From contig JBAZXP010000001.1 in the NCBI GenBank assembly GCA_041659805.1, positions 966,841-1,030,840 of the forward strand: DNA of 64,000 nt, given 5' to 3'. Made by a program: the position numbers and the translations under genes. Of the stretch, positions 6,490 through 26,920 are shown piece after piece (position 1 is the stretch's first letter; each line of letters opens with the position of its first letter). The notes beneath the pieces are model-generated. The model was not told the DNA's origin. It did no database searches and saw nothing but the letters and a program-made list of their open reading frames with translations. The stretch comes from Microgenomates group bacterium. Its GTDB lineage: Bacteria > Patescibacteriota > Microgenomatia > Daviesbacterales > UBA10151.

Positions 6490-7719
6490 TTGCATTTGAC
6501 AACTTTTCTATTCCCACTTACAGTAAATATAGTGATAATTTCCTATTTTAATAAATTTTACCGCACTTTTAACAGAAAAGTTGTAACTGTAATCTTACTT
6601 TTGATTACCTTATCTGCCATAGGACTCGCAGCTTTTTATTATAAAAGTATTAGTGACCTGACTGCTATGGATTTAAGCCTGCAAAAAAAGCTTAGTGAAA
6701 CAAACAAAGAGTTAGCTGATCTAAAAAATGTTGATCAGGTTAAAATTAATCAAAACTTAAACGATGAAATTAAAAATATTAATTCAGGTTATAAAAACTC
6801 AATCTCTGCATATGAGAAAATTACTGATTTAAAAGCTCAAAAGCTGGATACCTCCAAATTAGATCCTAAATATGCCGATGTTGTCAGACTTTTAGCAGAC
6901 AAAAAGTATAGTTCTGCCTCTGCAAAACTGGCAGATTTAAATACAGAAATCGAAAAAGTTACACCAAAAATAGTTGCCAGTGCTGCTCCTCCTGCTGCAA
7001 ATGCCCCACAAAGCAATAATCCACCAGGATCAGGATTTTCCCGTCAGGTGGTTTCAGTAGATGGTCAAAATTATACAGTTGATATTGTTGCAGCTGACCT
7101 TAATTCAACAAGAGTTATTGTTGATACTGCCTCTGATTCTGATTGTAGAAACAATTGCCCGACATTACCTTTAGCCACTTATGTTTCACGCTCAGGAGCT
7201 TTTGCCGGAATTAACGGTTCCTTCTTTTGTCCTGCAGAATATCCAAGCTGTGCAGGCAAAACCAATTCTTTTGATACTTTAGTGATGAACAAAAACAAAC
7301 ATTATTTTAATTCTGACAATAACGTTTATTCCACCCTTCCCTTAGCTGTTTTTTCTGCAGGTTCTGCCAGATTTCTGGGTCAAACTTTAAGCTGGGGCAG
7401 AGATACTGGGGTTGACGGAGTAATTGCCAATTATCCTTTGCTTGTTTCCGGTAATAATATTGTTTTTACCGAAAGCCCAAATGAACCCAAATTTGGCGGT
7501 AAAGGACCAAGAAGTTTTATTGCTAACAAAGGAAATATGGTTTATATGGGTTATGTTTACAGTGCTTCTATGGGTGAATCTGCCAAAGTTATGCGAGCAA
7601 TGGGTTTTGAAAATGCTTTAAATATGGATGAAGGCGGGTCATCTGCTTTGTGGTATGGGGGTTATAAAATAGGCCCAGGCAGAAATATCCCCAACGCAGT
7701 ACTTTTTGTCAGGAGGTAG
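6490..7719 (+). CDS. membrane-anchored protein with C-terminal phosphodiester-glycosidase-like (DUF2233/NAGPA-like) domain
   Basis: N-terminal TM, coiled-coil, then a C-terminal domain with NMDEGGSSALW, resembling the LDGGGSS motif of the phosphodiester glycosidase family. Confidence 0.45.
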   Translation: MHLTTFLFPLTVNIVIISYFNKFYRTFNRKVVTVILLLITLSAIGLAAFYYKSISDLTAMDLSLQKKLSETNKELADLKNVDQVKINQNLNDEIKNINSGYKNSISAYEKITDLKAQKLDTSKLDPKYADVVRLLADKKYSSASAKLADLNTEIEKVTPKIVASAAPPAANAPQSNNPPGSGFSRQVVSVDGQNYTVDIVAADLNSTRVIVDTASDSDCRNNCPTLPLATYVSRSGAFAGINGSFFCPAEYPSCAGKTNSFDTLVMNKNKHYFNSDNNVYSTLPLAVFSAGSARFLGQTLSWGRDTGVDGVIANYPLLVSGNNIVFTESPNEPKFGGKGPRSFIANKGNMVYMGYVYSASMGESAKVMRAMGFENALNMDEGGSSALWYGGYKIGPGRNIPNAVLFVRR

Positions 7720-8272
7720 GAAACCAAAAATGAATGTGCCTTACTTGTTTGAATGTTCCTCTTACCAATTTTGTATCAATATTAATCGGTCTTTCAAATA
7801 AAATTACCTTATCAGGAGTTAGTCTTAAAACAGTCATCACTTTGGCTATAAATTCAGCCGCAATAATCCTTTCTGTTGCCGGACTTGCCAACCAGATTAA
7901 AGATTGATTTAAGTCATCTGGTAACCAATATGGAAATAAATTTGGAGCTGCAGCCATATCAGAAGGTCCCAAAAAATCTTTTACCTGTCTTTCCAAATCT
8001 TCTTTTTTTTGTGCGTGATACCTATTATATTCATCTTCTGTCTTTATAGGCAAAAGTTCCAAATGACGTATTTTATCTCTGTCTTTTAAAAGTGAGTTAA
8101 ACTTTGGATAAATTTTGGGATCAATAATTCCCGGTTTTTTAAATTCTCTTCCCAATAAAATCTCAGGTGGTGTCATAATTCCCAAAACATCATCAATTAA
8201 TTCTTTATCCACAGATATATCCTCCAAATCAGTTGTTCTTAAAATATTTGGAATAAATAAAAGTTCTTTCAT
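7709..8272 (-). CDS. hypothetical protein, C-terminal H-x-H-x-hydrophobic motif (possible HIT/GalT-like)
   Basis: 187 aa ending ...VRHIHFWFPTS; 4-bp overlap with the upstream PurA-like gene implies co-translation. Confidence 0.3.
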   Translation of the reverse strand: MKELLFIPNILRTTDLEDISVDKELIDDVLGIMTPPEILLGREFKKPGIIDPKIYPKFNSLLKDRDKIRHLELLPIKTEDEYNRYHAQKKEDLERQVKDFLGPSDMAAAPNLFPYWLPDDLNQSLIWLASPATERIIAAEFIAKVMTVLRLTPDKVILFERPINIDTKLVRGTFKQVRHIHFWFPTS

Positions 8273-9579
8273 ATTATATTTATTGTTTTATCCCCCGCTT
8301 TAGGCCCACTTGATGTTATAACTATAGGTACTTTAATTTGATCCTGAATAAATTGAACATATTCAGATGGAGGCAAAATATAATTTGGTGTGCATTTTTG
8401 TAACATTTCCCCCAATTTTTGCTGATAAATATTATCTGTTGGGTGCATAACTTCAATTTTTTGTAATATTTCCCCTGTCTCAGAGGTATAAGAATTACAT
8501 ATTTTCCATTCCGGCATGCTCTTTAATTTGTCCAAATGAGTTAAGGCAATCCCATCAACAGACCCCAAAACTTCAACAGCATACCTGAGGGTAACTAAAT
8601 CAAAAAACCCTACTCTAAAATTACCCTGCCAGGGATTAGTTAAATTACTGGTATCAGGCAAGAGCTTAGATAATGTTTTATCTTCTGTGGGAAAAGGGCC
8701 TGCTCCGTGACGCGTAGCATATGCCCTGATTACTCCCAATTTGTATACTTCCCCCTGATATCTACTACACCAAATAAGCTCATCAGCATTTCCAAATGTA
8801 GTATCCCCGTGGGTAATATATGGGTAAAATCCATATTCTTGATCTAGAAGCACACCTTGTGCTCCTTCAAAAATAGCAGTTCCTTTCTGATCTAATATCT
8901 TTTTTAAATAATGTCTGTCCACAATTTTAGCAACAGAAATAAATTCTTTATATAAATCCAAAGTGTAGTTTATAGCCTCAGGACTGTCTAAAATCTTCAA
9001 CTCTCTTTTTACTAAATCTGATTCAGGAAAGCTTCCTCTTAAATTCTTTATCTTTTTCAGTTGAACATCACGAAGAAATCGTAATTTCTTTTTTGCCGTT
9101 TTTGCGTCAAGTAAATCTTCCATCATCAAAGTTTCTCTGCCAAACTTTAAATAATCTGCCATAGCTTCACTGACCCCTCTGCCTGTACTGCTTGTTGTAT
9201 TTAAAGTCAGCAATCTGTTTGATGTCTGATGAAAAGGAGTGATCACAGGACATTCCCCTTCTATAGTAGTTTTTTGGAAAGCATCATTAATTCCCATTTC
9301 CTTTAAACCCCGTTCTTCTTTTAGCATGCTCAAAGGATCAACCAGCATAAATCTGGAAAGATGAGTCTTTGTGCCACCTAAAGTTCCACTGCCAAATTGG
9401 GAAAAAATATGCTGATGTCCTTCAGGACTGATTACATTATGCCCGGCCTGAGCACCTCCGTTATAACGGATCACAGTATGTGCATTAAATTCCCTGCACA
9501 AAAAATCAGTAAGGCTGCCTTTTCCGGCGTCGCCGAAACCTAAATCTGCTATTTGTATTACTTTTTGCATTTCTTTCAT
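8269..9579 (-). CDS. purA: adenylosuccinate synthetase family protein (divergent PurA)
   Basis: PurA hallmarks present: GDAGKGS P-loop (canonical GDEGKGK), GGAQAGHNV, TGRG, FEGAQGVLLDQEYGFYPYIT, AYATRHGAGPFPTE, THLD, ITSSGP; 436 aa. Confidence 0.65.
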   Translation of the reverse strand: MKEMQKVIQIADLGFGDAGKGSLTDFLCREFNAHTVIRYNGGAQAGHNVISPEGHQHIFSQFGSGTLGGTKTHLSRFMLVDPLSMLKEERGLKEMGINDAFQKTTIEGECPVITPFHQTSNRLLTLNTTSSTGRGVSEAMADYLKFGRETLMMEDLLDAKTAKKKLRFLRDVQLKKIKNLRGSFPESDLVKRELKILDSPEAINYTLDLYKEFISVAKIVDRHYLKKILDQKGTAIFEGAQGVLLDQEYGFYPYITHGDTTFGNADELIWCSRYQGEVYKLGVIRAYATRHGAGPFPTEDKTLSKLLPDTSNLTNPWQGNFRVGFFDLVTLRYAVEVLGSVDGIALTHLDKLKSMPEWKICNSYTSETGEILQKIEVMHPTDNIYQQKLGEMLQKCTPNYILPPSEYVQFIQDQIKVPIVITSSGPKAGDKTINII

Positions 9580-9601
9580 ATTTTTAAATATAATTACTTT
9601 C

Positions 9602-9632
9602 GGGGGAGAGCCCTTATGTTTGGGGCTCTCCC
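9602..9632 (-). terminator. GC-rich hairpin (GGGAGAGCCC-N9-GGGCTCTCCC) between the vWA stop and the PurA-like start; possible partial terminator/attenuator
   Basis: 10-bp G/C stem in an AT-rich genome, 24 nt before the PurA-like ATG; a moderately U-rich tract follows on the minus strand. Confidence 0.4.
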
Positions 9633-9638
9633 GCCTTG

Positions 9639-10631
9639 CTACAGAAGCCTATATTTAGGCTTATCTGTATCTATCGGACCTAAATTGGTCCCACTATCAC
9701 CTTTAACTAACCTGCCATGCACTGGCACTACTGCGTTCCTGACAGCCAAGATTGTACTCTTACTGACTCCAAACTCTGCCAGGTTTTTCGAACCTGCGTC
9801 AAGATCAGTTGTCCCTTCGGATAAACCGATTTGTAGAGCAATTGTCTCGCAAACAGCCTCAGGATCTTCAAGCTGCAGGACATTTTGTCCTAAAAGCTTT
9901 CTCCAGGAAGCTAAAACTTCCGGGTCTCTCCCATTGCTAGCTGCAGTAGGCAGAATGTAAAAGGTCTCGTATCGTTTTTTCACTTCTTCAAATATCTCAA
10001 CAGTTGAGATATTTTCCTGAAGTGTGTCACCGATCACGTCAGCAACCTCTCTGGCTTTAACATTCGGATAAACCATTTCATCGCCGATAATAAACAAATA
10101 ACCTTTGTGTCTTCGTATATTCCAGCAATCAATGTCCGTATGTCTGGCCATAAAGTAGGTAGCCAACTCATAGCTTTCTGTTTTTTGAGCACCTCCGCCA
10201 CCTTCCAAAAGAATTTTTTCCAAATTCTCATCCATCCTGTTATCAGATTCAAACTGACCAATCTGAAGCGGAACACTGTCGCAGGTTGCGTCCCCAATGG
10301 CACCGAACAAAAACTGTGGATGCTCAGCCCAACCTTTCCGTACTACCAACCCGTTTAATTCCCCCAACTTTTTCTGGAAAATTTGGGGCAGAGTTCTCAT
10401 AGAACCCGTCACATCAAACAGTGTTGCAATGGCTAAAGAATATGCATGTTCTGCACTATCCCGACTTTCACGGAACCTGATACCTTTTGGATCAAGATTC
10501 GGATGAGCTTTCCACTTATCGCGGGAATACCGCTTAGTGTAATCATCATAGTCAAAAACCTTTTTTCCACTGGCTACTCTGGCCTTCTCACGTTCAGAAA
10601 AAACGTCTGTTGTCCATTCACCACCTCCCAT
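9639..10631 (-). CDS. von Willebrand factor A (vWA) domain protein
   Basis: MIDAS motif DVTGSM (DxSGS), downstream GGGGAQ and FIIGDE; likely start is MGGGEW at 10631, preceded by AAGGAGGTGA; the 9639..10673 ORF may be over-extended. Confidence 0.6.
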   Translation of the reverse strand: MGGGEWTTDVFSEREKARVASGKKVFDYDDYTKRYSRDKWKAHPNLDPKGIRFRESRDSAEHAYSLAIATLFDVTGSMRTLPQIFQKKLGELNGLVVRKGWAEHPQFLFGAIGDATCDSVPLQIGQFESDNRMDENLEKILLEGGGGAQKTESYELATYFMARHTDIDCWNIRRHKGYLFIIGDEMVYPNVKAREVADVIGDTLQENISTVEIFEEVKKRYETFYILPTAASNGRDPEVLASWRKLLGQNVLQLEDPEAVCETIALQIGLSEGTTDLDAGSKNLAEFGVSKSTILAVRNAVVPVHGRLVKGDSGTNLGPIDTDKPKYRLL

Positions 10632-11757
10632 TTTTATCACCTCCTTTCGCATTTTTTGGCATACTAAATACATGAAATTTCTTAGGACCCCATAAATCTA
10701 CAATCATAGAATCAAATTCTTCGAGTAATCCCCAGGCATCTTTTGGTCTTTGTTTCGCGGGCAACAAACAACCTCTGAAAAAAGCCTTTATTTTGGGATG
10801 AATATCACTTGGCAATTCCCCTAATTGAGGGTTACCTCCCAAAAGGTAAATCATATTTTTAGCTCCCAGATAAATATCCAATCCGGGACTCACCGGTTCT
10901 TTTTTGAATACTTCAGGCGGATACCAACTCTCCCAGTCACCGGATAGCGCCTGTAACCGTCCGCCTGTTGGATCTTTTTCAATTACAGAATATGACCATT
11001 CATTTATAACCAGTCCGTGTTTTTCCGGTTGGACAAAAAGATTTTGCGGCAGGGCAGCCCCATGAATTAAATTATTTTGATGTGCAAATCCCAACCCTAC
11101 TAATACTCTTCTGAATATCCATGCCATATCTTTTTGATCAATTCCTTTCGGATAAGCGTTTTTTACATCAACAAAAGAAAAAAGCTCATCCGGCCTTTTA
11201 GAAAAAGCATTAATGTTTTTGCGGATATGGTTGCTGTCCTCAAAAATAAAAGAATCAATTAAACCGGGAAAATACGGACGGAAATTATCAAAATTATCTA
11301 CTTCAGCCAATTTGCGAAGCATTTTAGCCTCATTTTCTACAAATTCGTTATCAAGAGGACTTTTTGCAACTTTAAATATGGCTGGAATATTAGTGCCACC
11401 TTCTTTATAGGTAGCCCCATGAACATTGCAAAAATCTGTTTGTGAGAAGGAATCAAAAATTTCATATTCCCTGACTCTGGTTCTGATGGTTAGCAAAACA
11501 TCCGGTGGAATTTGACCATAAGTTCCCAATTTTATTTTTTCCTGAGCTCTTTCCCAAAGCCTGGTCAGATTAATAAAGGCATCTTGAGCCTCTACTCCAC
11601 CATTTAAATCCGGATGAGTGAGCTTGCTTAATTGTCTGTATGTGGAAAGTACAGTTTTCAGAGGGTCGGCTGCTTCGCCTAATCCACCAAAGACATCTTC
11701 AGGATGTTTGGCATTGATAATTTTTTGTGTTATTAAATCTGACTCATTTTCTTTCAT
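10618..11757 (-). CDS. J-domain (DnaJ-like, HPD) fused to a degenerate protein-kinase-like (pseudokinase) domain
   Basis: YRQLSKLTHPDLNGGVEAQDAFINLTRLWE is a J-domain helix II-III with HPD. A kinase-like fold follows: AIFKVAK (beta3 Lys), ENEAKMLRKL (alphaC Glu), LIHGAALPQNLFV replacing HRDLKPEN (no catalytic Asp), no DFG, WYPPE replacing APE. Likely start is the ATG at 11757 preceded by GGAGGA, rather than the GTG at 11775. Confidence 0.55.
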   Translation of the reverse strand: MKENESDLITQKIINAKHPEDVFGGLGEAADPLKTVLSTYRQLSKLTHPDLNGGVEAQDAFINLTRLWERAQEKIKLGTYGQIPPDVLLTIRTRVREYEIFDSFSQTDFCNVHGATYKEGGTNIPAIFKVAKSPLDNEFVENEAKMLRKLAEVDNFDNFRPYFPGLIDSFIFEDSNHIRKNINAFSKRPDELFSFVDVKNAYPKGIDQKDMAWIFRRVLVGLGFAHQNNLIHGAALPQNLFVQPEKHGLVINEWSYSVIEKDPTGGRLQALSGDWESWYPPEVFKKEPVSPGLDIYLGAKNMIYLLGGNPQLGELPSDIHPKIKAFFRGCLLPAKQRPKDAWGLLEEFDSMIVDLWGPKKFHVFSMPKNAKGGDKNGRW

Positions 11758-11763
11758 GTTGTA

Positions 11764-11826
11764 AGTGTCCTCCACACACTAACTATAGTGTAACTATTAC
11801 ACAAAGGTTAGTGTTTTGTCAACACC
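11764..11826. promoter_or_regulatory. three tandem palindromic operator-like sites AGTGT-N7-ACAC(T/A/C) at 11764, 11787 and 11810 (23-bp phasing), overlapping the RBS/start and a TTGACA -35 on the minus strand
   Basis: AGTGTcctccacACACT (perfect), AGTGTaactattACACa, AGTGTtttgtcaACACc; the third spacer is the reverse complement of TTGACA, followed by a TGTGTAATAG-like -10. Confidence 0.5.
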
Positions 11827-12124
11827 CTATTTTGATTCTTGACGATTTATTATTAGAGCCCTACAATACCAATCTAGAAGACTGCTCTTTAAAAAATGAG
11901 TAAAGTTGATTTAGATTATTATGATAGGTTAGAGGTTAGCCCCCGTGCCAGAGCCTCTGTGGTGAACTTTGCTTAAAAGGAGATTTACTGGCAACAGCTG
12001 TGAATGTTTTTCAGGCTTTTAAATCAGTTTATCCTGATCCAACAACCCGCGAAAAACAAAATCCCAATCTATTCAGGTTACCCCAGAAATTATTCCGTTC
12101 GATGTTTAAGTAATACCTGAAATT

Positions 12125-15100
12125 TTAACGTAGAATACTATCAATAGTGTGATCCACTAAAATCCTTTGTCTTCTATCCCCTATTTTGGGCAGAATAACT
12201 CTTTTGCAGACATCTTTTACATTTGCAGCATGATTCATACGAAGTGCAATATTGACCATTTCCCGAAGAGAGGTTGTAAAATCCATGGGTTCATTAGATT
12301 CACCAACTTGATATGCCTGATACATCCTTCGAAGGTCATTAGCTACCCTGATTGCATCATATAACCTTCTGACATCTTTTTCTAAATTTGCGTTGGCTTT
12401 AAGGAGCATATCTCCTCCATTGGTGGTATCTCTGTTTATAATATAATCCCAGGCTTGTTTAAATTCCTTTTGTTGTAAACTTTCTAAAACATGAACATAT
12501 GAAAACAACATTTCAGCCTCATCACTTCTATAATAAGTTCTTCCATTTCTTGGTTCTTCAAATGGAGGATAAGCAACCTCTATAATATCTCCTCTGGAAA
12601 GAATTGTTTCAGCTAATTTATCTACACCTGCATAGTCCTGAGGATTCATAGTACCTGCTAAAATAACTGTCGGATCAGCAATAACTTCATGCTGCACTCC
12701 ACCTTCATTAACAACCAACTTCCTTCTATAATCAAATAACGGATTTAACATTTTTACAATTCCCGGTTTGACTGTATTAATTTCATCAAACAGAATAATT
12801 GCCCCCGGCTTTTGTAATGCTTCTATTAAACGTGAAGGTAATTTATAAGTTCCTTTATCAGGATCATAATAAAATTCATAGGTTAAATCTTCTTTTGCTG
12901 TATTTTCATTACAAGCAATCGTCACAACTTCCCTATTGGAAAGATTAGCCAATACATCTATTAATACATTTTTCCCTGTTCCTGCTTCTCCTTCTAAAAT
13001 AGTAATCCCCATATGATTATCCATTTGGATATTCAGGCTCTCTGCTAACTCTTCCAGTTTTTTATTTTGATATTCAGATATTTTCCATCTGTCATTATAT
13101 TCAGGAACTTCCCTTTTTAAGCCTTTGAAATGATCTTCTGCCTCTTTTCTGTGTCTTTCGATCATACGAGCAGTATCTTCAAAGTTTAAATCAGGTATAA
13201 CCGGCGTCCTATGATCTGGACTTGGATGCCAAAGTCTACCTTGTTCATCCTGAAATGCTAAATCAGCATGCATGGCTCCGGCAATCGGAAGTAAAACAGG
13301 CCTCCATAAACGGGGCGGCTCTTTATAAACCGGAAAGCTAACTTGACCAAACTTTAATTCTCCTGTATCTCCAACAACACCCAACTCTTTTCTGTGTTCA
13401 ATATCCTTTTTGCGTGCACCCATCACTACTTCCAATTTTTTCTCTTCGATTTCACGAAGTTCAGGTGGTAAGGCAAAAATCTTGGCTCTCCAGGCAGTAA
13501 CCAAAGGATTTCTGTCAAACCTATCTAATTCTCTTGTATCTGAAAGCTCTGTAATTTGCTCCCTTAATGAAGCCAAATCTTCTTTGGCCTCTTCTACTAA
13601 CTGAGCCCATCTTAAACGTTGTTCCTCTTCCAGCTGCCTGCCTCTGGATTCAAGCTGAGATCTTTGTTCAGATTTGATAATATTTAGCTTGTCCCTAAGC
13701 TCTTTTCTTACCTGTGGGTCCCGGACATTTGCCAACATCATCTCAAATTGTTGTGCTTCAATTGTAGTTCCAAACATTGCCAACTCCTGAGAAGAACCAG
13801 TTTCTTTAATAAGCTGTTCTATATTAGGAAAGGCACCTTGGATTGCATCAGATAATTCTTGTTGGTATTGTCCAACAACCATTTCCTTTTTAGCTTGTAT
13901 CGATCTTAACCTCTGTTCTATATTTCTGCGGGTTGCAGGATCAGTAACATCTGTTTTTTGACGAAGCTCCAAAAGTCTGGCAAATTCTTCGTCCAAACCG
14001 ATCGTATCCCCCATACTTTTTACCTCCGTTATTGATTTTTCATATTCGGCAAGTTGATTATCAAATTCAGCTGTCCTAATCCCACTCAACTTTTCTCTGG
14101 CCTTACTAATAAATTCATCTACTACTTCACCATATGCCTGGTTTGCAGGATCTGCTTTAAGACCCTGAAGCCTATCCATAATCTCTTCAATTGCTTCCGG
14201 GTCGGTTGTTTGAACTAAGGGTTCATCGACTTGTCTGGCGATTGCTTCACGTAAGGTATTCGCAACATCCTCTTCAGAAATTCCATTACCTTTTTGTTTT
14301 TGAACTCTTTTAAGTTCCAAAGATGCAAACCTTTCCTGCATTTCACGAAGTTGTTCTTCTCTTTTTTCATGAGCTAACTCGCTACCACCTGTAGGAATAG
14401 CCTGAAAATTTGTTTGTATTTCTCTTAATTTATTTTCAGTATCAACATATAAAATATCTCCTTGTTTATCGACCAAAATTGGCCCTAAAACATTATTGAA
14501 TTCCTTAACTACCTCTCCAGATTCTTTATCAATGATTGATAGTTTTTGGCCAGATCTGACAATGAAAAAATTAACATTCGGATCAATCTCTATTTCTTCG
14601 GGATTCTCAACTCTTATTTGAGCTTCAAGCAAAGGCCGAGCACTTCTATCCGCTACCCCATTCAAATCCAGGCTATATATTCCTCCAGTATTAATAAAAT
14701 AGAGCTTACTTTGATCATTTGGGTCTAAAGTTGGCTTAGAACCACTAAAGCTAGCCAGCTCCTTTCCATCTGAACCATTTATTTTGAAAAAATGCGCTTC
14801 CTCTTTAAGTGTTAACTCTCCTATAAGTTTTGCTGACGGATCAATAAGTTGACTAAACACTTCATTAGTAACTGTCTTTTTAGTCGCAGGTTGTGTAGGA
14901 TTAATAAAAAAATAGTTTTCTTCGGTTTGAAAAATAAAGCCAGTCGTATTTTTTTCAGGAACCTTTCGAATCTTCATTTCCCATTTTCCGACAGGAATAA
15001 AAAATTCAGCGTTTTTTCTAACATCTGTCTTATCCATCATAAAGCCATATTCTGCTCCATAGCGTGTTCCTAACTGATTTTTAGCGATTTTACGCCAAGT

Positions 15101-15499
15101 AGTCTGAATTGTTTCCTGCGCTGCTTTTTTGGAAAAACCTATTTTTCTAAGCAAGTAACTAAAATCGTCTGAATAATCATTAGTTTTATCAACTGCTATG
15201 TAAGTTCTACTATTCGCATCAGCTATATCATAGGTTGTAGGGTCTAGATGAACTCTTGAGAGATTACCCAGACCATCAAACATTAAAGCTTCATAATGAT
15301 TTTCGATTTTAGACAAAATCCCGACTACTTCATCGATCTTTTTTATATCCTGTACTTCTCCTACTAATCGTTCCTTGAATCTTTCTTCAGGCAAAAGCTG
15401 AGTCTCTACTGTTTGAGCCAAAAGACTTCTTTGAACCAATATTTTTTCTTCTTCTTTCATATTATAGGGTATTTTACGCTTTTCATAATCAAATTTCAA
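12125..15499 (-). CDS. giant coiled-coil protein with C-terminal MoxR/AAA_5-type AAA+ ATPase domain
   Basis: 1124 aa. The N-terminal ~330 aa look like beta-rich repeats and ~450 aa are heptad-rich coiled coil. C-terminal AAA+ motifs: GEAGTGKNV Walker A (GKN variant), ILFDEINTVKPGIVKMLNPLFD (MoxR-like DEINRA Walker B region), AGTMNP sensor-1. Confidence 0.6.
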   Translation of the reverse strand: MKFDYEKRKIPYNMKEEEKILVQRSLLAQTVETQLLPEERFKERLVGEVQDIKKIDEVVGILSKIENHYEALMFDGLGNLSRVHLDPTTYDIADANSRTYIAVDKTNDYSDDFSYLLRKIGFSKKAAQETIQTTWRKIAKNQLGTRYGAEYGFMMDKTDVRKNAEFFIPVGKWEMKIRKVPEKNTTGFIFQTEENYFFINPTQPATKKTVTNEVFSQLIDPSAKLIGELTLKEEAHFFKINGSDGKELASFSGSKPTLDPNDQSKLYFINTGGIYSLDLNGVADRSARPLLEAQIRVENPEEIEIDPNVNFFIVRSGQKLSIIDKESGEVVKEFNNVLGPILVDKQGDILYVDTENKLREIQTNFQAIPTGGSELAHEKREEQLREMQERFASLELKRVQKQKGNGISEEDVANTLREAIARQVDEPLVQTTDPEAIEEIMDRLQGLKADPANQAYGEVVDEFISKAREKLSGIRTAEFDNQLAEYEKSITEVKSMGDTIGLDEEFARLLELRQKTDVTDPATRRNIEQRLRSIQAKKEMVVGQYQQELSDAIQGAFPNIEQLIKETGSSQELAMFGTTIEAQQFEMMLANVRDPQVRKELRDKLNIIKSEQRSQLESRGRQLEEEQRLRWAQLVEEAKEDLASLREQITELSDTRELDRFDRNPLVTAWRAKIFALPPELREIEEKKLEVVMGARKKDIEHRKELGVVGDTGELKFGQVSFPVYKEPPRLWRPVLLPIAGAMHADLAFQDEQGRLWHPSPDHRTPVIPDLNFEDTARMIERHRKEAEDHFKGLKREVPEYNDRWKISEYQNKKLEELAESLNIQMDNHMGITILEGEAGTGKNVLIDVLANLSNREVVTIACNENTAKEDLTYEFYYDPDKGTYKLPSRLIEALQKPGAIILFDEINTVKPGIVKMLNPLFDYRRKLVVNEGGVQHEVIADPTVILAGTMNPQDYAGVDKLAETILSRGDIIEVAYPPFEEPRNGRTYYRSDEAEMLFSYVHVLESLQQKEFKQAWDYIINRDTTNGGDMLLKANANLEKDVRRLYDAIRVANDLRRMYQAYQVGESNEPMDFTTSLREMVNIALRMNHAANVKDVCKRVILPKIGDRRQRILVDHTIDSILR

Positions 15500-15503
15500 A
15501 TAT

Positions 15504-17771
15504 TTACTGAAGGTATCGTTTAAATTGAATTAAGCAGGTTCTGAGTAATCTAAAGGCTTCATCAGGCAAATCCTCAAATTTTTCCGGATAAGCACAATTG
15601 CTTTCACCAAAATATAAGTTTAAATAATTTTGTATCTGTTGTCTTTCATTCGCATTTCCGGATAATCCAAAAGCTTTAAAGGTAAGTCTGCCTCTGTTTT
15701 CTTCAACATAGTCCCGCAAATCATCCCCTGTCAAACCTTGATTAGCTCCTCCGTCTGTGATTACCACAATTAATCCGTGCGAATCTGTGTATCTCCTTCT
15801 TCCCTCATTCATTCCTTCAATAACCAACTCAATTCCTGCATGAATGTCAGTGCTGTTATCTACAGCCTCTGTATAATCAATAATTGCAGGCTTAACCCGC
15901 TCAGAAGGGTTATCAAAATCCTGCTGAAAATCTTTAATTACAACCGCGTCTTCACCAAAGGCAACACCCATAAATGGTATCCCCATATCCTTACAAACTT
16001 CAGAAAAAAAGATCATGGTCTTACGGGCCTGCGCTTGTTTGCTTTTCATCGAATAACTTTTATCTGCTACCAGACCAATAAATAATCTTGGTGCTCCTGT
16101 TGGCCTTTCTATCTGCCTTAAATGAAATCTTTCATCATTCATGGGTGCCCGGCGGACGATCTCCCGTCTATCAAATTTCGGACCGCTAAAAAATTCGCCT
16201 TCATATCTGCCTTCACCTTTTCTGGGGATTACTTTTTCAATTGCCTGTCTGAAATTCCTGATATTGGAATACATACTATCTTCTAAAGTTTTATAAATTA
16301 AATACTTTTCCCGCTCATGTTCCGGATCAAAACCAGCCTGTTCCATATCTAATTTTTCACGCCTTAAACTTTCTGTTTGTTTACGCAAGTCTTCCTGTTG
16401 ACGGTATGTACTTTCTGTCGCTTCAGCTTCAGCTCTCTCCTCTGCCTCCACCTCATTCACAATTTTCTGATACTCACCGGCAGCGTTATTTTGTTGATTT
16501 TCATCTGCCAATTGAGGCTGTCTTTCATATTCTCCTGTATCATTATTCTTCTCCAATTTAGCAGTTTTATTTAAATCCTCCTCTAAGGCTTCTTTTTGTG
16601 CCTCATCGATAATTTCTCTTGACTTTTTCTCTAAAGCTTCTCTTTCTGCAGAGGGAAGTTGATCTATTGCTTCTTGCAGTTCCTTTAATTGTTCATCAGT
16701 AAATTGTGATAAATCAGTCCTTTCCTGTTTATTAACATTCTGGTTTTGTTGCGGTTTTTTTTCTCCGGTGAGAGCCTGTTTAATTCTGTCCATAAATCCT
16801 TGCATTCCGCCTTTTTTGCCTTCACTTTGCCCAGACTGACCTTGATTTTTACCGCCGGGAATACTTGGTACTGCCGCACCTTCTCCTTGTCCTTCTCCTG
16901 CTGATTGACCACCCCCGGACGACTGACCTTGCCCTTGCCCTTGCCCCTGTCCCTTCATGCCTTTTTGTTGTGCCATTTGACGCTTTTCCTCATCTTTTAT
17001 ATCTTTTTTTTCTAAAACCTTAGCAATATCCCAAATTTTATATTGTAAAAGTTTTCTTTCTTCAACATCCGTGTTATTAAAGTATTGATCCAAAAGAGGT
17101 GCTGCTACTTCCCCTAATTTACCCACTTCTGTATTCGCCAGCTCGGGAATTCCTGTTCCATGAAGTGCCCTATGGAAAGATTCATAAGCAAACTGCAACA
17201 TATATGGTCTGTCTTTTAAAGGAGTTTCTGTAATTCTTTCCTGAAGATCTTTACCTTGATTTTCCTTAATCATTTTGTCTATTGCAGGAGACTCTTCACC
17301 CTCAAGATTATTAATTCTGGGATCTTCTATCCCTTCCCAGGTTAACCAGAAACTTGTAGGCAAGTTTCCATCATCTGTTGCCTTCCTCTGTCCCTCATAC
17401 ATCAACCTGAAATCTGTGTATTTTGCATGACCTGCTTCATGATGAAGAATGGTATCAATTTCCTCCCAATTCATATCCTGAGCAGACTCAGCATCATAAA
17501 GAATTTGTTTTGCTCTAAAAGACTCAGGAGGCAGATCATCCAGAGTTTCTCTTTTGCCCTGAATATATTTTATGATTTCATTATTCACCTTAGGGTCTAA
17601 AGAGGTGGCCCAAACACCCTTGTTTCTGGAAGGAATAACTGCAATATCATATCTTCTGGCAAAAACTCTCCCCATATGAGCGATAAGTTTATTTTTTTCG
17701 AAGCGAAGATGCTCGGCTTTTTGTGCCGATTCTTCTGGGTCGCGCCGTAAAAAAAACTCTGCTTCTATCAT
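15504..17771 (-). CDS. HExxH (zincin-like) - low-complexity/coiled-coil - C-terminal vWA domain protein
   Basis: ILHHEAGHAKYTD (HExxH with a downstream Glu), (GQ)n tract, long coiled-coil, C-terminal MIDAS LVADKSYSM...VVITDGGAN; 4 bp upstream of the MoxR-type gene, as in a MoxR/vWA partner arrangement. Confidence 0.55.
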   Translation of the reverse strand: MIEAEFFLRRDPEESAQKAEHLRFEKNKLIAHMGRVFARRYDIAVIPSRNKGVWATSLDPKVNNEIIKYIQGKRETLDDLPPESFRAKQILYDAESAQDMNWEEIDTILHHEAGHAKYTDFRLMYEGQRKATDDGNLPTSFWLTWEGIEDPRINNLEGEESPAIDKMIKENQGKDLQERITETPLKDRPYMLQFAYESFHRALHGTGIPELANTEVGKLGEVAAPLLDQYFNNTDVEERKLLQYKIWDIAKVLEKKDIKDEEKRQMAQQKGMKGQGQGQGQGQSSGGGQSAGEGQGEGAAVPSIPGGKNQGQSGQSEGKKGGMQGFMDRIKQALTGEKKPQQNQNVNKQERTDLSQFTDEQLKELQEAIDQLPSAEREALEKKSREIIDEAQKEALEEDLNKTAKLEKNNDTGEYERQPQLADENQQNNAAGEYQKIVNEVEAEERAEAEATESTYRQQEDLRKQTESLRREKLDMEQAGFDPEHEREKYLIYKTLEDSMYSNIRNFRQAIEKVIPRKGEGRYEGEFFSGPKFDRREIVRRAPMNDERFHLRQIERPTGAPRLFIGLVADKSYSMKSKQAQARKTMIFFSEVCKDMGIPFMGVAFGEDAVVIKDFQQDFDNPSERVKPAIIDYTEAVDNSTDIHAGIELVIEGMNEGRRRYTDSHGLIVVITDGGANQGLTGDDLRDYVEENRGRLTFKAFGLSGNANERQQIQNYLNLYFGESNCAYPEKFEDLPDEAFRLLRTCLIQFKRYLQ

Positions 17772-18989: not shown

Positions 18990-19028
18990 TATTTGACTTT
19001 TTTGGGTTTTCAGCGTATCTTTGTGTGT

Positions 19029-19721
19029 ATGAGTGACACTATCAAACTTCCGGAAAAATATAATTTGAACGATTATCAGTGCCCTTCTGTAACTGTTGAT
19101 ATCCTTGTTTTTACAATCGAAGCTTCTGAACTAAAAGTATTACTCATCAAACGGGCAATCGAGCCTTTTAAAGACGAATGGGCTTTACCGGGAGGATTTA
19201 TAAAGATGGATGAATCCTTAGAAGCAGCAGCCTTAAGAGAATTAGTACAGGAAACAGGTGTAAAAAATGTTTATTTGGAACAACTTTATACTTTTGGGGA
19301 TACCAACAGAGATCCCAGAAGCAGAGTTATTACTGTTGCCTACTTCGCTCTTGTTCCAAGCGCTAAATTGGATTTGAAAGCATCAACAGACGCAGCTGAT
19401 GTGGCCTGGTTCCCTATAAAAAAACTTCCCAAATTAGCTTTTGATCACAAAAAAATTATTGATTATGCAATGAACAGACTAACAAGCAAGATTGAATATT
19501 CTAATATTGTATATGGATTACTTCCGATTAAATTCCGTCTAAGTGAGTTGCAAAAGGTATATGAAGTTATTTTAAGTAAAAAGATGGATAAAAGAAATTT
19601 CCGTAAATGGATACTTTCCTTAGGGTTACTTGAAGCCACGGGAGAAAAAGACACTGATGGCGCCCACAGACCTGCAGAACTTTTTAAATTTAAAAAAAGA
19701 GAACCAGTTCTATTTGACTAA
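19029..19721 (+). CDS. nrtR: Nudix-related transcriptional regulator (NrtR-like): N-terminal Nudix domain and C-terminal helical/winged-helix-like region
   Basis: Near-canonical Nudix box GGFIKMDESLEAAALRELVQETGV (one Glu to Gln change) followed by an ~80-aa C-terminal domain containing KRNFRKWI; sits next to a full NAD salvage operon. Start is the ATG at 19029; the ORF track uses TTG at 18993. Confidence 0.5.
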   Translation: MSDTIKLPEKYNLNDYQCPSVTVDILVFTIEASELKVLLIKRAIEPFKDEWALPGGFIKMDESLEAAALRELVQETGVKNVYLEQLYTFGDTNRDPRSRVITVAYFALVPSAKLDLKASTDAADVAWFPIKKLPKLAFDHKKIIDYAMNRLTSKIEYSNIVYGLLPIKFRLSELQKVYEVILSKKMDKRNFRKWILSLGLLEATGEKDTDGAHRPAELFKFKKREPVLFD

Positions 19722-19768: not shown

Positions 19769-20473
19769 TCATTGAGCCTTACCATAAATCTCAATGATTC
19801 TTGGAATTTCTCCAATGCTGATAATCTTAGCTCCAGCTTCTTCCATCTCTAATAAGGCCTGCTTTGCTCCTTCTGGAGTAATACCTGATATTGCATCTTC
19901 TACGATGTACGTCTGTATACCGCGCTTTTGCATCCCTACGACTGCAGCCAGATCACAATACTCAGTCGCAACATAATAAACAATAGCTGCTCTTACTCCT
20001 GCTTCTTTGAGAACAGTTTCAACAGCAGGGTTTGTAAAAACATCATAATGTTGTTTTTCAAAGATTATATCTTTGCCTGATCTTGCAATCTCTGCCAACT
20101 CATCTGGACTATAACGTCTGAAGTTGTCTCCCTCAGCAATCTTATTTTCAACAATTAAAGCTGAATCAGATGCTACTTCAGGAATAAAATCTATGCCAAA
20201 TGTTCCGTCTTCATTTAACTGATTGTATTTCCAATCCATGCAATGAAGCGGAAAAGGGCCTCCGTTATCGATAAGCTCAGGATCATCCATAAAATGTCTG
20301 TCCCTACTCTTAAATCTCCTGATACCTGCATCTTTTAGCATTTTTCCGACAGAAGCAGCATTTTCTCTGATTTCTTCAGCACCAGGAACGTATAATCTTC
20401 CGTCATTTTTTCTCATGAAATCATTCTGTGCATCAACTTCATAACCTATTAATTCTTTTGACATTTTTCTCAC
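19769..20473 (-). CDS. pncA: nicotinamidase/pyrazinamidase (isochorismatase-like cysteine hydrolase)
   Basis: LIGYEVDAQNDFM N-terminal signature and ~230-aa isochorismatase-family length, in an NAD salvage operon. Confidence 0.65.
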   Translation of the reverse strand: MRKMSKELIGYEVDAQNDFMRKNDGRLYVPGAEEIRENAASVGKMLKDAGIRRFKSRDRHFMDDPELIDNGGPFPLHCMDWKYNQLNEDGTFGIDFIPEVASDSALIVENKIAEGDNFRRYSPDELAEIARSGKDIIFEKQHYDVFTNPAVETVLKEAGVRAAIVYYVATEYCDLAAVVGMQKRGIQTYIVEDAISGITPEGAKQALLEMEEAGAKIISIGEIPRIIEIYGKAQ

Positions 20474-20479
20474 CTCCCT

Positions 20480-21385
20480 TCAAGGTAAAATTGCAACTCT
20501 AAGCGGGTGTTCGTGAGCTACAGAGATACTGACTTTACTTCCTTCTTCAAGGTTGAATGAAAAACTATCGTCACTTGGATCAGGATCAAAATCTATTTCT
20601 GTATCTTTCCCTAGAGAAAAAATTGTTAACTCCTCACCTAAATCCAAATCCCCAATTTCCAAAAATCCTGAATCAAGATCTTTTTCTCGGCAAACAAAAC
20701 GGGCATGAGGGGCAGTTCTGGGAAAATGAGAATATTTTTCCATAACTTCATCTTTCCAGTGTCCGACAATATTTCTGTACCAACCTGTAAGCCCTGAACC
20801 TGTGGCAATAACCAAACCGGAATTTTTTTGCTCGTCATTTATTCCGCGATAATTAATAATACTTCTGCTAATCCCTCTGTTTTTCAATTCACCGACAAAG
20901 ATTTCTGATAGAGCAAAAAACGGCAAAAGCTCTCCGTCTAAAACTGCCTGTAATCTTGTCCATTTTTCTGTTTCAAAGGAATTTTTATCCAGACAATCAC
21001 GGAGGTAGTCAATATGTTCAGGTTTAAAAGACAAAATCCCACCTTTAGAAGTTTCCGGATCAGAATTTATTCCAACAACCAGCTGGTCTCCGGTCACAAA
21101 ACGTGACACATATTGCAAATGATTATCTCCTCCGGGACTAAAAATAATGTTATATTTTTTAGCGACATCTACATTAAAATCATCGCGGTGGATTATTGGC
21201 ACGTTTAAAGCTTTGCCTAATTTTTCAATGTTCTCTATCTGTCTGTAATGACTGGCAATTTTTTTATCAGCATCTGCCCCCTGCTTTTTCCACAAATTAA
21301 TCTGATCCTGCATAGAAATATTGGAAGTTTTCATTTTCCATTCAACTACAGTGAGTTTTGGTACGATTACAGCCTCAACGCTCAT
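20480..21385 (-). CDS. nadK: NAD kinase-like (ATP-NAD kinase family, divergent GGDN motif)
   Basis: IIFSPGGDNHLQY (vs GGDGT), VVGINSDPETSKGGILSF (vs NxGxLGFL), ATGSGLTGWYRN (vs SGSTAY). Confidence 0.5.
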   Translation of the reverse strand: MSVEAVIVPKLTVVEWKMKTSNISMQDQINLWKKQGADADKKIASHYRQIENIEKLGKALNVPIIHRDDFNVDVAKKYNIIFSPGGDNHLQYVSRFVTGDQLVVGINSDPETSKGGILSFKPEHIDYLRDCLDKNSFETEKWTRLQAVLDGELLPFFALSEIFVGELKNRGISRSIINYRGINDEQKNSGLVIATGSGLTGWYRNIVGHWKDEVMEKYSHFPRTAPHARFVCREKDLDSGFLEIGDLDLGEELTIFSLGKDTEIDFDPDPSDDSFSFNLEEGSKVSISVAHEHPLRVAILP

Positions 21386-22320
21386 TTTATAAATCTCCTT
21401 TTCCCGATATAATCTTTAATGAATCGATTATGATCAAACGCTAGATTATCAGGTATTTGATCCCAAGGGAATACTTTAATATCAACGGCATCATCACCAG
21501 CTCTTAAGACTCCTCCATCAATCCTTTTTTCATAAACCATAGTGACGTAGTGACCTCTCGGATCTCTATCGGGATCTGAATATTGTCTGAATTGATCTTC
21601 TAAGGAAACTTCAATATCAAGATTTGTTTCTTCTTTTGCTTCCCTAACAGCAGCACCTTCAACAGTTTCCTTTCCATAATTAATATAACCTCCGGGGATT
21701 GCCCATTTTAAGGAATTCGGATCGCCTAATTTTTCTTTTCTCTGGATTAAAACAATACCCTCATCTCTATAATTAAGAATTACATCTGCTGTAACTGCAG
21801 GGTTTAGAAAACGCTCCCTACCGCTGATGCGCTGCTCTCCTTTGATCTTTTTTAGATGAGCAATCACTTCTTCTGGTACCAGGTCTTCCCACTCTCCACC
21901 GTTTTTAATCATTTCCCGAACATCTGTTGCGCAAATCGGTAAATCATGTATCGGCTTTCTGATTTCAATCCCGTATCCGTCAAATATTCTGCTTACCCAA
22001 TTATTTCCTGTGTAAACTATGCTGAATCTTTCAGGACTAAGGATATCGATTAGCTTTCTCCATTTTTCATCATTGTAAACATCGGGAATACCGAAAACTG
22101 CAAATGGTTTTTCCATTCTCTTTTCCAGAGTTGCTTTAATCATTTGCAAGCGTTCATTAAAACTGAAAGGGTTGTGCTCTGTATTGCCTTCCTGAGAAGA
22201 TCCAATTCCGATTAATATTTTTGCAACATCTGGTGCTCTTTCAATTTGTTTGACAACAGAAAGATGCCCCAAGTGAAATGGTTGAAATCTACCTACAACT
22301 AATGCATTTTCTTGTTTCAT
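21382..22320 (-). CDS. nadM: bifunctional NadM-type NMN/NaMN adenylyltransferase with C-terminal Nudix (ADP-ribose pyrophosphatase) domain
   Basis: ALVVGRFQPFHLGH (archaeal-type NMNAT HxGH) plus C-terminal Nudix box AIPGGYINYGKETVEGAAVREAKEETNL; likely start is MKQENAL at 22320. Confidence 0.75.
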   Translation of the reverse strand: MKQENALVVGRFQPFHLGHLSVVKQIERAPDVAKILIGIGSSQEGNTEHNPFSFNERLQMIKATLEKRMEKPFAVFGIPDVYNDEKWRKLIDILSPERFSIVYTGNNWVSRIFDGYGIEIRKPIHDLPICATDVREMIKNGGEWEDLVPEEVIAHLKKIKGEQRISGRERFLNPAVTADVILNYRDEGIVLIQRKEKLGDPNSLKWAIPGGYINYGKETVEGAAVREAKEETNLDIEVSLEDQFRQYSDPDRDPRGHYVTMVYEKRIDGGVLRAGDDAVDIKVFPWDQIPDNLAFDHNRFIKDYIGKRRFIK

Positions 22321-22324
22321 TTTT

Positions 22325-25125: not shown

Positions 25126-25166
25126 TTTTTATTTTTCCTTTCTTGTTTATGTATTTTTATAAATGT

Positions 25167-26156: not shown

Positions 26157-26794
26157 TTTGTTCCTCCCATTAATGACTTGCGCCATTGCATAAGCCCTAC
26201 TATGCACATACAAAGGAATAGCGCATAAAGAACGCTTGTCAGGTACAAGCCCTTGTAGGCATATAGCCAAATGTAAATTACATCAGCAGAAATCCAAACA
26301 TACCAATTCTCAAGTATTTTTCGTGTTAATAAGTACTGCGCTACCAAGCTCATCACCGTGGTTAAAGCGTCCCAAAAAGGTGCTGAATCGTTGATTTGTC
26401 GCAGATATACAGTCATTCCGAATGTTGTAAGAATTGTTATCATTAGGAGTATTAACACGGTATTGATCCCTACGTGAGAAACTTTAAGTTCGGTTTTATT
26501 CTCCCCACCTTTTAGCCACCAGTACCAACCCAGGATTCCTAAAACTATATAGACAACCTGAAGTCCCATATCTGCAAAAAGCCTGGCTTGTAAAAATAAA
26601 ACAATAAAGAAAACATTGTTGGCGATCCCAATAGGCCAATTCCAAATATTTTGTTTTACAGTCAACCAAACACAAGCTGCACCAGTTATAAATCCAAGTA
26701 CTTCAGTTACCCCCATTGGTAAAATACTTTTCCAAGATGTATACAGCAAGGCTGCTGAAACTAAACTAAAAATTGTTAATTCTTTTTTGTTCAT
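26153..26794 (-). CDS. pnuC: nicotinamide riboside transporter PnuC
   Basis: 213-aa, 7-TM protein with WNWPIGIANNVFF; classical pnuC-nadR adjacency. Confidence 0.65.
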   Translation of the reverse strand: MNKKELTIFSLVSAALLYTSWKSILPMGVTEVLGFITGAACVWLTVKQNIWNWPIGIANNVFFIVLFLQARLFADMGLQVVYIVLGILGWYWWLKGGENKTELKVSHVGINTVLILLMITILTTFGMTVYLRQINDSAPFWDALTTVMSLVAQYLLTRKILENWYVWISADVIYIWLYAYKGLYLTSVLYALFLCMCIVGLMQWRKSLMGGTK

Positions 26795-26815
26795 ATAATT
26801 TATTTCTTTTGTATT

Positions 26816-26877: not shown

Positions 26878-26920
26878 ACTTTATAACAAAGGGATTTGTG
26901 TGGTTACTTTTAGAATTAAC

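Follow-up and report, generated by a model that had tools for sequence, protein, structure and literature searches.

Gene content of the locus

The window analysed here is a 64,000 nt stretch of contig JBAZXP010000001.1 from a bacterium placed in the Microgenomates group of the Candidate Phyla Radiation (CPR), and the genes in question are six co-oriented minus-strand open reading frames (ORFs), p1 to p6, which lie close to an nrtR regulator gene and a nicotinamide adenine dinucleotide (NAD) salvage operon (Table 1). A preliminary description of this DNA had read the six genes as a single multi-gene system, in which a MoxR-type ATPase and its vWA partner are joined to a J-domain pseudokinase, a second vWA protein, a PurA-like enzyme and a HIT-like protein. 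All six ORFs were present at the coordinates originally given, and nearly all of the domain assignments were borne out by profile and structure tests (Pfam, alignments and AlphaFold2 (AF2)/Foldseek). The genes nevertheless form two independent units, p1-p2 (unit A) and p3-p4-p5 with p6 (unit B). The trio p3-p4-p5, which encodes the J-pseudokinase, a vWA protein and the PurA-like enzyme, is apparently a real, widespread and undescribed module.

Table 1. Genes and predicted regulatory features of the locus (window coordinates; aa, amino acids; MIDAS, metal ion-dependent adhesion site)
Feature	Unit	Position	Strand	Description
p6	B, clade-specific accessory	7709..8272	-	DUF3605/HTC1-like HIT-fold protein; 4-bp overlap with the PurA-like gene
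p5	B	8269..9579	-	PurA-like GTP-type ligase; catalytic core kept, contacts to the IMP 5'-phosphate and L-aspartate lost
p4	B	9639..10631	-	vWA fold; invariant MIDAS (DxTxS...D); invariant N-terminus MG[SG][GS]xW[ST]T
p3	B	10618..11757	-	J-domain (HPD) fused to a catalytically dead protein-kinase-like domain
Triple NrtR-type operator array		11763..11827		Three TAGTGT-N7-ACACTA palindromes about 23 bp apart; overlap the -35, -10 and Shine-Dalgarno of the J-kinase operon
Sigma-70-like promoter, J-kinase operon		11793..11822	-	TTGACA, 18 nt, TG-AATAGT; 10/12 matches, TG-extended
p2	A	12125..15499	-	1124 aa; C-terminal AAA_5 (MoxR/dynein-type) ATPase; long charged helical middle; uncharacterised N-terminal ~370 aa
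p1	A	15504..17771	-	755 aa; N-terminal HExxH (zincin-like), (GQ)n tract, charged helical region, C-terminal vWA with MIDAS
nrtR regulator		18993..19721	+	Nudix and NrtR winged-helix domains; NrtR_WHD 6.7e-25, NUDIX 4e-22
Single NrtR-type operator		19023..19041		Covers the nrtR start codon (autoregulation)
NAD-salvage operon		19769..26794	-	PnuC, NadR-like (NMNAT+AAA_28), PncB, NadE, NadM-Nudix, 301-aa unknown, PncA (Pfam)
Second triple NrtR-type operator array		26815..26878		Upstream of pnuC, first gene of the NAD-salvage operon

Synteny separates the trio from the MoxR/vWA pair

Gene neighbourhoods were compared across 87 loci, all retrieved via the J-kinase gene, which comprise 80 reference-genome loci and further metagenomic relatives. 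The reference loci were taken from 504 J-pseudokinase relatives obtained by scanning reference genomes with a 9-sequence alignment, and every locus was searched with all six window proteins against six-frame ORFs. The PurA-like gene was found in 85/87 loci and p4 in 84/87, whereas p1, p2 and p6 were present in three, all of which are near-identical copies of the window's own locus (L001-L003). On the proposed check for co-occurrence of the six genes, p3-p4-p5 are syntenic across phyla and p1-p2 do not belong with them. No p1 or p2 was detected in the CPR relatives that share the other genes at 64-69% identity (L088-L090), and relatives of p1-p2 were found in loci that lack the trio (L091-L093), where the p2 relatives (62-70% identity) always adjoin a p1 relative and the flanks share nothing with the window. 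Because p1 and p2 are missing from relatives of the trio, and because the pair occurs without it, the MoxR protein is not a partner of the pseudokinase, vWA and PurA-like genes, and its apparent embedding among them is a neighbourhood accident of this lineage.

The spacing of the genes had been described as a run of short gaps and 4-bp overlaps. This holds for p6 and p5, which overlap by 4 bp, but p2 and p3 are separated by a 367-nt spacer (11758-12124) that marks a transcription-unit boundary, since it contains a promoter and a triple operator. An operator scan of the window found no such site upstream of p1, and a terminator scan detected no intrinsic terminator between p2 and p3. An Rfam scan of positions 7000-27500 returned no credible RNA, and the spacer therefore carries no riboswitch.

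Predicted NrtR operators link the trio to NAD salvage

NrtR operators are 21-bp palindromes with a GT-N7-AC core for which ADP-ribose acts as anti-repressor, and both operator binding and release by ADP-ribose have been shown for other NrtR proteins (PMC2330246). The window contains eight matches to such an operator where 1.85 are expected, and none of 100 shuffled sequences reached this number. The array in front of the J-kinase operon recurs upstream of pnuC, so that the same type of array is predicted to control the NAD-salvage operon 15 kb away; through these shared predicted operators, the p3-p4-p5 operon would be a member of the NrtR regulon. At the regulator gene itself, whose true start is probably the ATG at 19029, the single operator has an equivalent placement in L089 (7592-7610) and L090 (3847-3865), and the TTGACA of the J-kinase promoter is likewise conserved at the equivalent place in relatives. 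An additional operator-like match with two mismatches (37874-37892), which lies inside a gene for a 612-aa protein (36929-38767), is probably a chance occurrence, given that about two matches are expected.

This arrangement extends well beyond the window. Its counterpart stands in front of the J-kinase gene in L004, L056, L088, L089 and L090, and such operators lie ahead of this gene in every CPR locus that covers the region. At least 11 of the 15 Ktedonobacteria loci have them as well, without an adjacent nrtR. In two of the CPR relatives (L089 and L090), the trio and p6 are co-directional with nrtR, pncA, pncB, nadM-Nudix and a conserved gene of about 300 aa in one cluster. Overall, an NrtR-like Nudix/winged-helix gene adjoins the trio in 65/87 loci, and the actinomycete operons start with such a gene. 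A strict search for GT-N7-AC palindromes upstream of the actinomycete nrtR-like genes found none; a k-mer approach identified a different, conserved nested inverted repeat, TT[GC]TTCTCA-N-GAGA...TCTC-N-TGAGAA, approximately 30-60 bp upstream of the nrtR-like start (L026-L087), which is presumably the operator of that NrtR-like paralogue.

The NAD-salvage operon of the window also encodes a 301-aa protein (20480-21385, minus strand) that has no Pfam match and is conserved in L088, L089 and L090, where its gene lies between those for NadM-Nudix and PncA or before the J-kinase gene. A 'GGD'-type motif recognised by eye is reminiscent of NAD kinases, and this protein may be an unannotated enzyme of the NAD pathway.

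A PurA-like enzyme with an intact core and altered substrate pockets

The preliminary description identified p5 as an adenylosuccinate synthetase homologue with an altered P-loop. The homology is clear, with a full-length match to PF00709 (1.6e-68; 231.8 vs 27 bits), but the alterations reach far beyond the P-loop. The protein falls below the purA equivalog cut-offs (188.8 vs 402 bits and 176.9 vs 395.55; NF002223/TIGR00184) and below that for PurZ (54.8 vs 300 bits; NF038379). A residue census of 84 PurA-like sequences, in E. coli PurA numbering, showed where this divergence lies. The catalytic core is kept, with H41, Q224 and D333 present in 84/84 sequences and D13, K16 and T239 in 81/84 each. 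Among the contacts to the IMP 5'-phosphate, where T239 is also counted, N38 is Gln in all 84, T129 is Cys in 80 and R143 is variable (His in 42, Tyr in 13 and Arg in 7). The L-aspartate loop, which reads TNPWQG-NFRVGF in the window, has lost each of its canonical contacts: T300 is Trp and T301 is Gln in 83/84 sequences each, R303 is deleted throughout and R305 is Phe in 82/84. In the guanine motif, K331 is His in 72/84 and the guanine-specifying residue D333 is retained.

Since the contacts to the IMP phosphate and to L-aspartate are lost, p5 is not a normal adenylosuccinate synthetase. Its residues suggest conserved chemistry, in which a guanine nucleotide would donate a phosphoryl group to a purine-type lactam before an amine attacks, with substrates that must be other than IMP and aspartate. 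No purB was linked to the trio in any locus examined. These observations support the earlier suggestion of a nucleotide-centred function. In public records the PurA-like proteins are named adenylosuccinate synthetase or '2-aminooxy adenylosuccinate synthetase'; a subfamily of the PurA superfamily with an intact core and rewired pockets is thus routinely mis-annotated, with consequences for metabolic reconstructions in which CPR bacteria are taken to make AMP from IMP.

The near-invariant Cys at E. coli position 129 (80/84) could be catalytic or redox-sensitive; the clade to which the window belongs is the exception, with Thr.

The vWA protein, the J-pseudokinase and the HIT-fold protein

p4 has no Pfam match, and the vWA assignment made for it was upheld by structure prediction, in which an AF2 model (predicted local distance difference test score 80.5) adopts a vWA/integrin I-like fold, with Foldseek probabilities of 1.0 against the integrin beta-I, alpha-M I-domain and NorD vWA folds. 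Its MIDAS residues, D73-x-T75-x-S77 and D184, are invariant. The family exceeds 5,267 clusters, every one of them labelled 'hypothetical' (phrog_2971, function unknown, in PHROGs), and is strongly conserved, with about 58% identity between CPR and Chloroflexi members. From the start codon onwards, the N-terminal motif is invariant in bacteria and phages, and this segment is predicted to be disordered. As a lead for future work, the N-terminal glycine is a candidate nucleophile or active-site plug.

Alignment of 23 sequences confirmed that p3 combines a J-domain with a kinase-like domain that lacks the catalytic Asp and DFG. The J-domain HPD has an invariant H48 and P49, and its D50 is present in at least 90% of sequences. 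The HRD motif reads HG[A/C/S], with H232 invariant and no Asp, the position of the catalytic Asn is occupied by N, H or Y, and DFG reads [D/E/N]W[S/C]. Landmarks of the kinase fold are retained (alpha-C E143, YPxEV, D294 and RPxDAW), and on these residues the domain is predicted to be a pseudokinase. Across the family, Pfam detected Pkinase in 17/23 and DnaJ in 8/23 members (E<=0.01, best 5.9e-8); the window protein itself scores 17.7 bits against DnaJ, compared with a gathering score of 27.8. The closest PHROGs entry is phrog_3043 ('kinase', E 2e-35), and PADLOC and NCBIfam profiles show weak similarity of the kinase domain to MkoA (2.6e-6), MAD6, PglW and PD-T4-6. A word-indexed protein search yielded 27 clusters, which could have been taken for a family confined to CPR bacteria; this was rejected on the basis of the 504 relatives from the genome scan.

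p6 is an accessory of the CPR clade. Its HIHFW ending, pointed out in the preliminary description, is conserved in relatives as part of 'RHIHFW'. Set against the histidine triad HxHxHxx (HxHxQ in the GalT branch), this segment has an invariant H179 and H181, and an equally invariant W183 stands third. A fold search recovered the HIT alpha+beta fold, there was no Pfam HIT match, and two relatives gave weak DUF3605 matches. The family comprises 8 close clusters and 121 representatives overall. PDB sequence searches with p4 and p6 returned no match, and searches of PADLOC and NCBIfam for defence systems found nothing for p4, p5 or p6. One member of the p6 family (P0173, 594 aa) carries a fused APH-type small-molecule kinase domain, and a NAD cluster of Saccharimonadaceae (L004, 5394-7016) encodes a Nudix-APH fusion adjoining PncA/PncB; APH-like kinases may take part in NAD or nucleotide salvage in CPR bacteria.

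Distribution in bacteria, plasmids and phages

Unit B occurs in Actinomycetota, Chloroflexota, CPR bacteria and Proteobacteria, and the trio is also carried by megaplasmids of Rhodococcus and Tsukamurella and by plasmids of the Agrobacterium group. In addition, p4-like genes were found in 221 phage genomes, of which 202 belong to Bixzunavirus (cluster C1) mycobacteriophages. The one Bixzunavirus examined, QBert, encodes proteins annotated as 'kinase', hypothetical and 'adenylosuccinate synthetase' in the same order as in bacteria and with all family signatures, including the HPD of the p3 homologue. Papers on C1 phages simply list a 'serine/threonine kinase' and a 'PurA-like adenylosuccinate synthetase', and the three proteins correspond to phrog_3043, phrog_2971 and phrog_1211.

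Vibrio and Rhizobium phages carry the p4-like and PurA-like genes only, and profiles of the J-kinase and p6 found no match in these phage loci. The universal core of the module therefore consists of two proteins, the vWA protein and the PurA-like enzyme, which the J-pseudokinase frequently joins as a third. The core pair of Rhizobium phage TM30 lies about 3 kb from phosphoribosyltransferase-like and NMNAT/Nudix genes. Just upstream of the pair, Vibrio phage pv27 (L095, 6207-6920) and TM30 (L096, 5777-6568) share a protein with an extremely Met/Gly/Gln-rich C-terminal tail, which may be a phage-specific third partner in place of the J-pseudokinase.

Directly downstream of the trio on plasmid pAtS4e of Allorhizobium ampelinum (L098, 8381-12804) are genes for an AAA family ATPase, DUF5682 and DUF4132, a second case of an AAA+ machine adjoining the trio. 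A relationship of this ATPase to p2 was considered and rejected, as no similarity was detectable. Neighbours in actinomycetes (amino-acid permease, gamma-glutamyltransferase (GGT), alanine dehydrogenase (AlaDH) and MpaB-like genes) are clade-restricted, and were judged to reflect ordinary synteny and not to be parts of the module.

The MoxR/vWA cassette and its probable insertion site

The features claimed for unit A were largely recovered. p1 contains the HExxH motif ('LHHEAGHAKY'), the (GQ)n tract and a C-terminal vWA domain with DxSxS...T...D, and both HExxH and the DxSxS/T/D residues are conserved in the relatives at L091-L093; the Pfam VWA_2 match (aa 567-674, E 1e-4) lies below threshold at 23 vs 27 bits. 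The ATPase domain of p2 was confirmed as AAA_5 at aa 834-969 (E 3.3e-20, Pfam). The middle third of this protein is charge-rich and poor in Pro and Gly, but heptad periodicity was patchy in a crude test and the proposed coiled coil was not confirmed. An AAA_5/MoxR-type ATPase gene thus stands beside a MIDAS-bearing vWA gene, and this pair is kept in L091-L093. No match to p1-p2 reaches the cut-off of a characterised subfamily (RavA, CbbQ, NorQ or GvpN); the best curated match for p2 is of the GvpN type, at 25.2 bits against a cut-off of 266.8 (NCBIfam). From these profiles and neighbourhoods, p1-p2 looks like an autonomous, lineage-specific vWA+MoxR cassette of the general MoxR/vWA chaperone kind.

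In this lineage the cassette appears to have been inserted between nrtR and the J-kinase operon, at a position that is considered variable because eight unrelated small genes occupy it in L088. In the window, two co-directional genes directly upstream of nrtR (17860-18989, plus strand; 172 and 203 aa) share this spot with p1-p2; they have no Pfam or PHROG match and were found only in the window's own species. Two plus-strand ORFs of more than 100 aa, at 9553-9960 (antisense to p4/p5) and 15777-16085 (antisense to p1), look like non-coding shadow ORFs, and the 'conservation' of the one over p1 in L091-L093 simply mirrors that of the p1 frame.

A working model and its alternatives

The explanation that we favour, and to which we attach a moderate degree of confidence, is that the locus holds two units and that unit B, as part of the NrtR regulon, specifies an NAD-linked nucleotide ligase that is induced by ADP-ribose and accompanied by a vWA partner and a protein that recruits DnaK. 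Under this model, the NrtR repressor, released by the NAD+ breakdown product ADP-ribose, would hold the operon off until NAD is consumed. With a guanine nucleotide and the Asp/His/Gln machinery typical of PurA, the PurA-like enzyme would then phosphorylate the lactam oxygen of a purine-type nucleotide and couple the activated nucleotide to an amine. Replacement of the 5'-phosphate contacts points to a nucleotide other than free IMP, and replacement or deletion of the Asp loop to an amine other than L-aspartate. p4 would be the obligatory partner of the enzyme through MIDAS-mediated binding, its invariant N-terminal glycine may supply the amine, and in most lineages the J-domain pseudokinase would bring DnaK/Hsp70 to the complex. 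The role of such a complex would lie in NAD/ADP-ribose homeostasis, as recycling or repair of a NAD-derived purine nucleotide, and phages plausibly captured the module to cope with depletion of host NAD+.

A more explicit version of this model is speculative, and we think it doubtful in its full form. Here, the vWA and PurA-like pair with its J-pseudokinase would constitute an ADP-ribose-induced NAD/purine branch that phages have captured as a fourth counter-measure to NAD+-depleting immunity, in which a NAD-derived 6-oxopurine nucleotide (e.g. deamino-NAD or IDP-ribose) is activated by GTP and joined to a non-aspartate amine, possibly the N-terminal glycine of p4. If true, coupling to this glycine would join protein and nucleotide through purine C6, a kind of conjugation that would be new.

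Several points weigh against the favoured model. The J-domain motif of the Allorhizobium protein is HTD instead of HPD and two phage groups (Vibrio and Rhizobium) have no J-pseudokinase, so Hsp70 recruitment is not essential to the core. Control by the NrtR-like protein in actinomycetes is deduced from gene adjacency and an inverted repeat that is unlike GT-N7-AC. The IMP-phosphate loop of the window's own p5, 'SSTGRG', is atypical for the family and resembles the canonical 'GTTGRG', and some canonical activity could persist in this CPR lineage. The substrate, nucleophile and nucleotide specificity proposed for p5 are all predictions from residue conservation. Finally, as no p2 terminator was detected, transcription of p1-p2 may read through into the trio.

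Among the alternatives, we judge it unlikely that the trio is an anti-phage or abortive-infection defence, with NrtR sensing ADP-ribose, the PurA-like protein acting as a toxic effector that depletes GTP/purines or makes a poisonous nucleotide, and the vWA protein and J-pseudokinase serving as sensor or regulator. Enrichment of the module in filamentous Actinomycetota and Chloroflexota, its presence on megaplasmids and the weak kinase similarities to MkoA, MAD6, PglW and PD-T4-6 fit this proposal, and the combination of a Nudix-helix-turn-helix (HTH) repressor, an enzyme and a vWA chaperone parallels predicted immune systems centred on an ADP-ribosylglycohydrolase (ARG) (Iyer et al. 2022, PMC9503650). 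Conflict systems are, however, usually fast-evolving with variable modules, and the trio has a fixed architecture and very high conservation, as seen for p4 between CPR bacteria and Chloroflexi. It also lies inside a core NAD-salvage operon of reduced CPR genomes, its p4 and p5 have no PADLOC match, and its presence in about 200 lytic mycobacteriophages argues for a function that benefits replication.

Also improbable, in our view, is that the trio handles nucleotide-modified (e.g. ADP-ribosylated) proteins, whereby the vWA protein and J-domain/DnaK would bind clients that the PurA-like enzyme processes or marks. Precedent exists in the NrtR-like/ARG systems, where vWA proteins are described as Mg2+-dependent peptide-binding chaperones (PMC9503650). 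Further support comes from the HPD, which most lineages conserve, from the invariant N-terminus of p4 and from the loss of the enzyme's Asp loop, which makes space for a peptide amine. Nevertheless, the J-domain is dispensable in some lineages, and the conserved core includes no ADP-ribosylglycohydrolase, macro or NADAR gene. No PurA-family enzyme is known to act on proteins.

A third possibility, which we consider very unlikely, is that p5 is a divergent housekeeping adenylosuccinate synthetase supplying AMP for NAD synthesis, flanked by kinase-like and vWA genes that are unrelated conserved neighbours. CPR proteins are generally divergent, the PF00709 match is strong and full-length, the catalytic residues are retained and the window protein has a canonical-looking 'STGRG' loop. 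This is difficult to reconcile with a score below every purA equivalog cut-off (189 vs 402 bits), the invariant replacement or deletion of T300/T301/R303/R305, the change of N38 in 84/84 sequences, the strict linkage to p4 across phyla and the lack of a linked purB in any locus. Members of the subfamily also reside on plasmids and phages of hosts expected to have their own purA, as Rhodococcus and Mycobacterium smegmatis should. Lastly, we give hardly any credence to the original proposal of one MoxR/vWA-driven conflict or signalling system, in which the MoxR giant and its vWA would work with the J-pseudokinase, second vWA, PurA-like and HIT-like proteins: the six genes adjoin one another in a single orientation, both in the window and in L001-L003, no terminator was detected between p2 and p3, and the AAA ATPase and DUF5682/DUF4132 block beside the Allorhizobium trio could hint at a recurrent AAA+ association, but synteny has already largely refuted this reading, with p1/p2 missing from 84/87 loci and from the relatives at 64-69% identity, the p1-p2 pair found without the trio, a separate promoter and operator for the trio where p1 has no operator, and no detectable similarity between the Allorhizobium AAA protein and p2.

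For the NAD-linked ligase that we favour, NrtR control and the NAD-salvage context provide a concrete functional clue, and the occurrence of the trio in cluster C1 mycobacteriophages and on Rhodococcus and Agrobacterium-group plasmids ties it to active research on how phages and hosts deplete and reconstitute NAD+. Rhodococcus, and M. smegmatis with Bxz1-type phages, are genetically tractable, so the module is open to experimental test.

Comparison with described systems

Literature searches found no description of a J-pseudokinase/vWA/PurA-like gene combination, and no Pfam, NCBIfam or PADLOC entry covers it, in keeping with the preliminary description's view that the composition is undescribed. 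The analogy with TerY-type and other NTP-dependent conflict systems, also raised there, does not hold. The TerY-P/vWA+kinase systems (Kaur et al. 2020, PMC7159879) resemble the trio in having vWA and kinase-fold genes side by side and in being frequent in filamentous bacteria. Unlike them, the trio has a kinase without the catalytic Asp and no PP2C phosphatase or STAND/effector gene among its conserved neighbours, is very strongly conserved, and in CPR bacteria lies inside a housekeeping NAD operon; the word 'Adenylosuccinate' is absent from PMC7159879. PurA (EC 6.3.4.4) and phage PurZ share with p5 the fold, the family PF00709, catalytic D13/K16/H41/Q224 and the guanine-specifying D333. In contrast to both, p5 has its Asp loop replaced or deleted and N38, T129 and R143 changed in essentially all members, and its gene is paired with a vWA gene and never linked to purB. 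Unit B was therefore rejected as a PurA, PurZ, TerY-type or other described vWA/kinase conflict system, as it lacks their defining features.

Unit A is closer to known systems. Like RavA-ViaA, CbbQ-CbbO, NorQ-NorD and GvpN, it has an AAA_5-type ATPase adjoining an intact-MIDAS vWA gene as a conserved unit, but its proteins are giants (755 and 1124 aa) with HExxH, (GQ)n and long charged helical segments, the vWA gene comes first and no client gene is evident. In unit B, the vWA protein is paired with a J-domain protein and not with a MoxR ATPase, and would represent a Hsp70-driven analogue of the MoxR/vWA activases.

The phage systems NARP1 (Adps+Namat), NARP2 (NadV+NMNAT) and NARP3 (PnuC+NadR-like) are, like the trio, phage-borne and tied to NAD/ADP-ribose metabolism. 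Their host versions are NrtR-regulated, and the NAD operon of the window includes a NARP3-type PnuC and NadR-like pair. The trio was rejected as a version of NARP1, NARP2 or NARP3, since its proteins fall outside those families and the NARP papers contain no PurA, vWA or kinase components; a NAD-forming activity cannot be inferred for it with confidence from its sequences.

The closest published concept is that of the ADP-ribose-countering systems (Iyer, Burroughs, Anantharaman and Aravind 2022, PMC9503650, section 3.8), predicted to combine a Nudix- or WYL-HTH repressor with an ARG and a vWA or other chaperone. As in unit B, an ADP-ribose-sensing Nudix-HTH repressor accompanies an enzyme and a vWA 'peptide-binding chaperone', and the system would be off by default and induced by ADP-ribose. 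Unit B differs in that its enzyme is PurA-like and not an ARG, no phosphatase is present, the genes are strongly conserved where those of the ARG systems are fast-evolving, and they are found inside CPR NAD salvage and on lytic phages. The regulatory setting itself matches the NrtR regulon of Rodionov et al. (2008, PMC2330246), with a Nudix and winged-helix regulator, GT-N7-AC palindromes and co-regulated pnuC, nadR, pncA, pncB, nadE and nadM, to which the window would add a J-pseudokinase/vWA/PurA-like operon that is not among the known targets. That study also reported unexplained NrtR targets, nrtX-nrtY, in Streptomyces, Frankia, Kineococcus, Proteus and Hahella, and the module described here may relate to these orphan targets, which have awaited an explanation since 2008.

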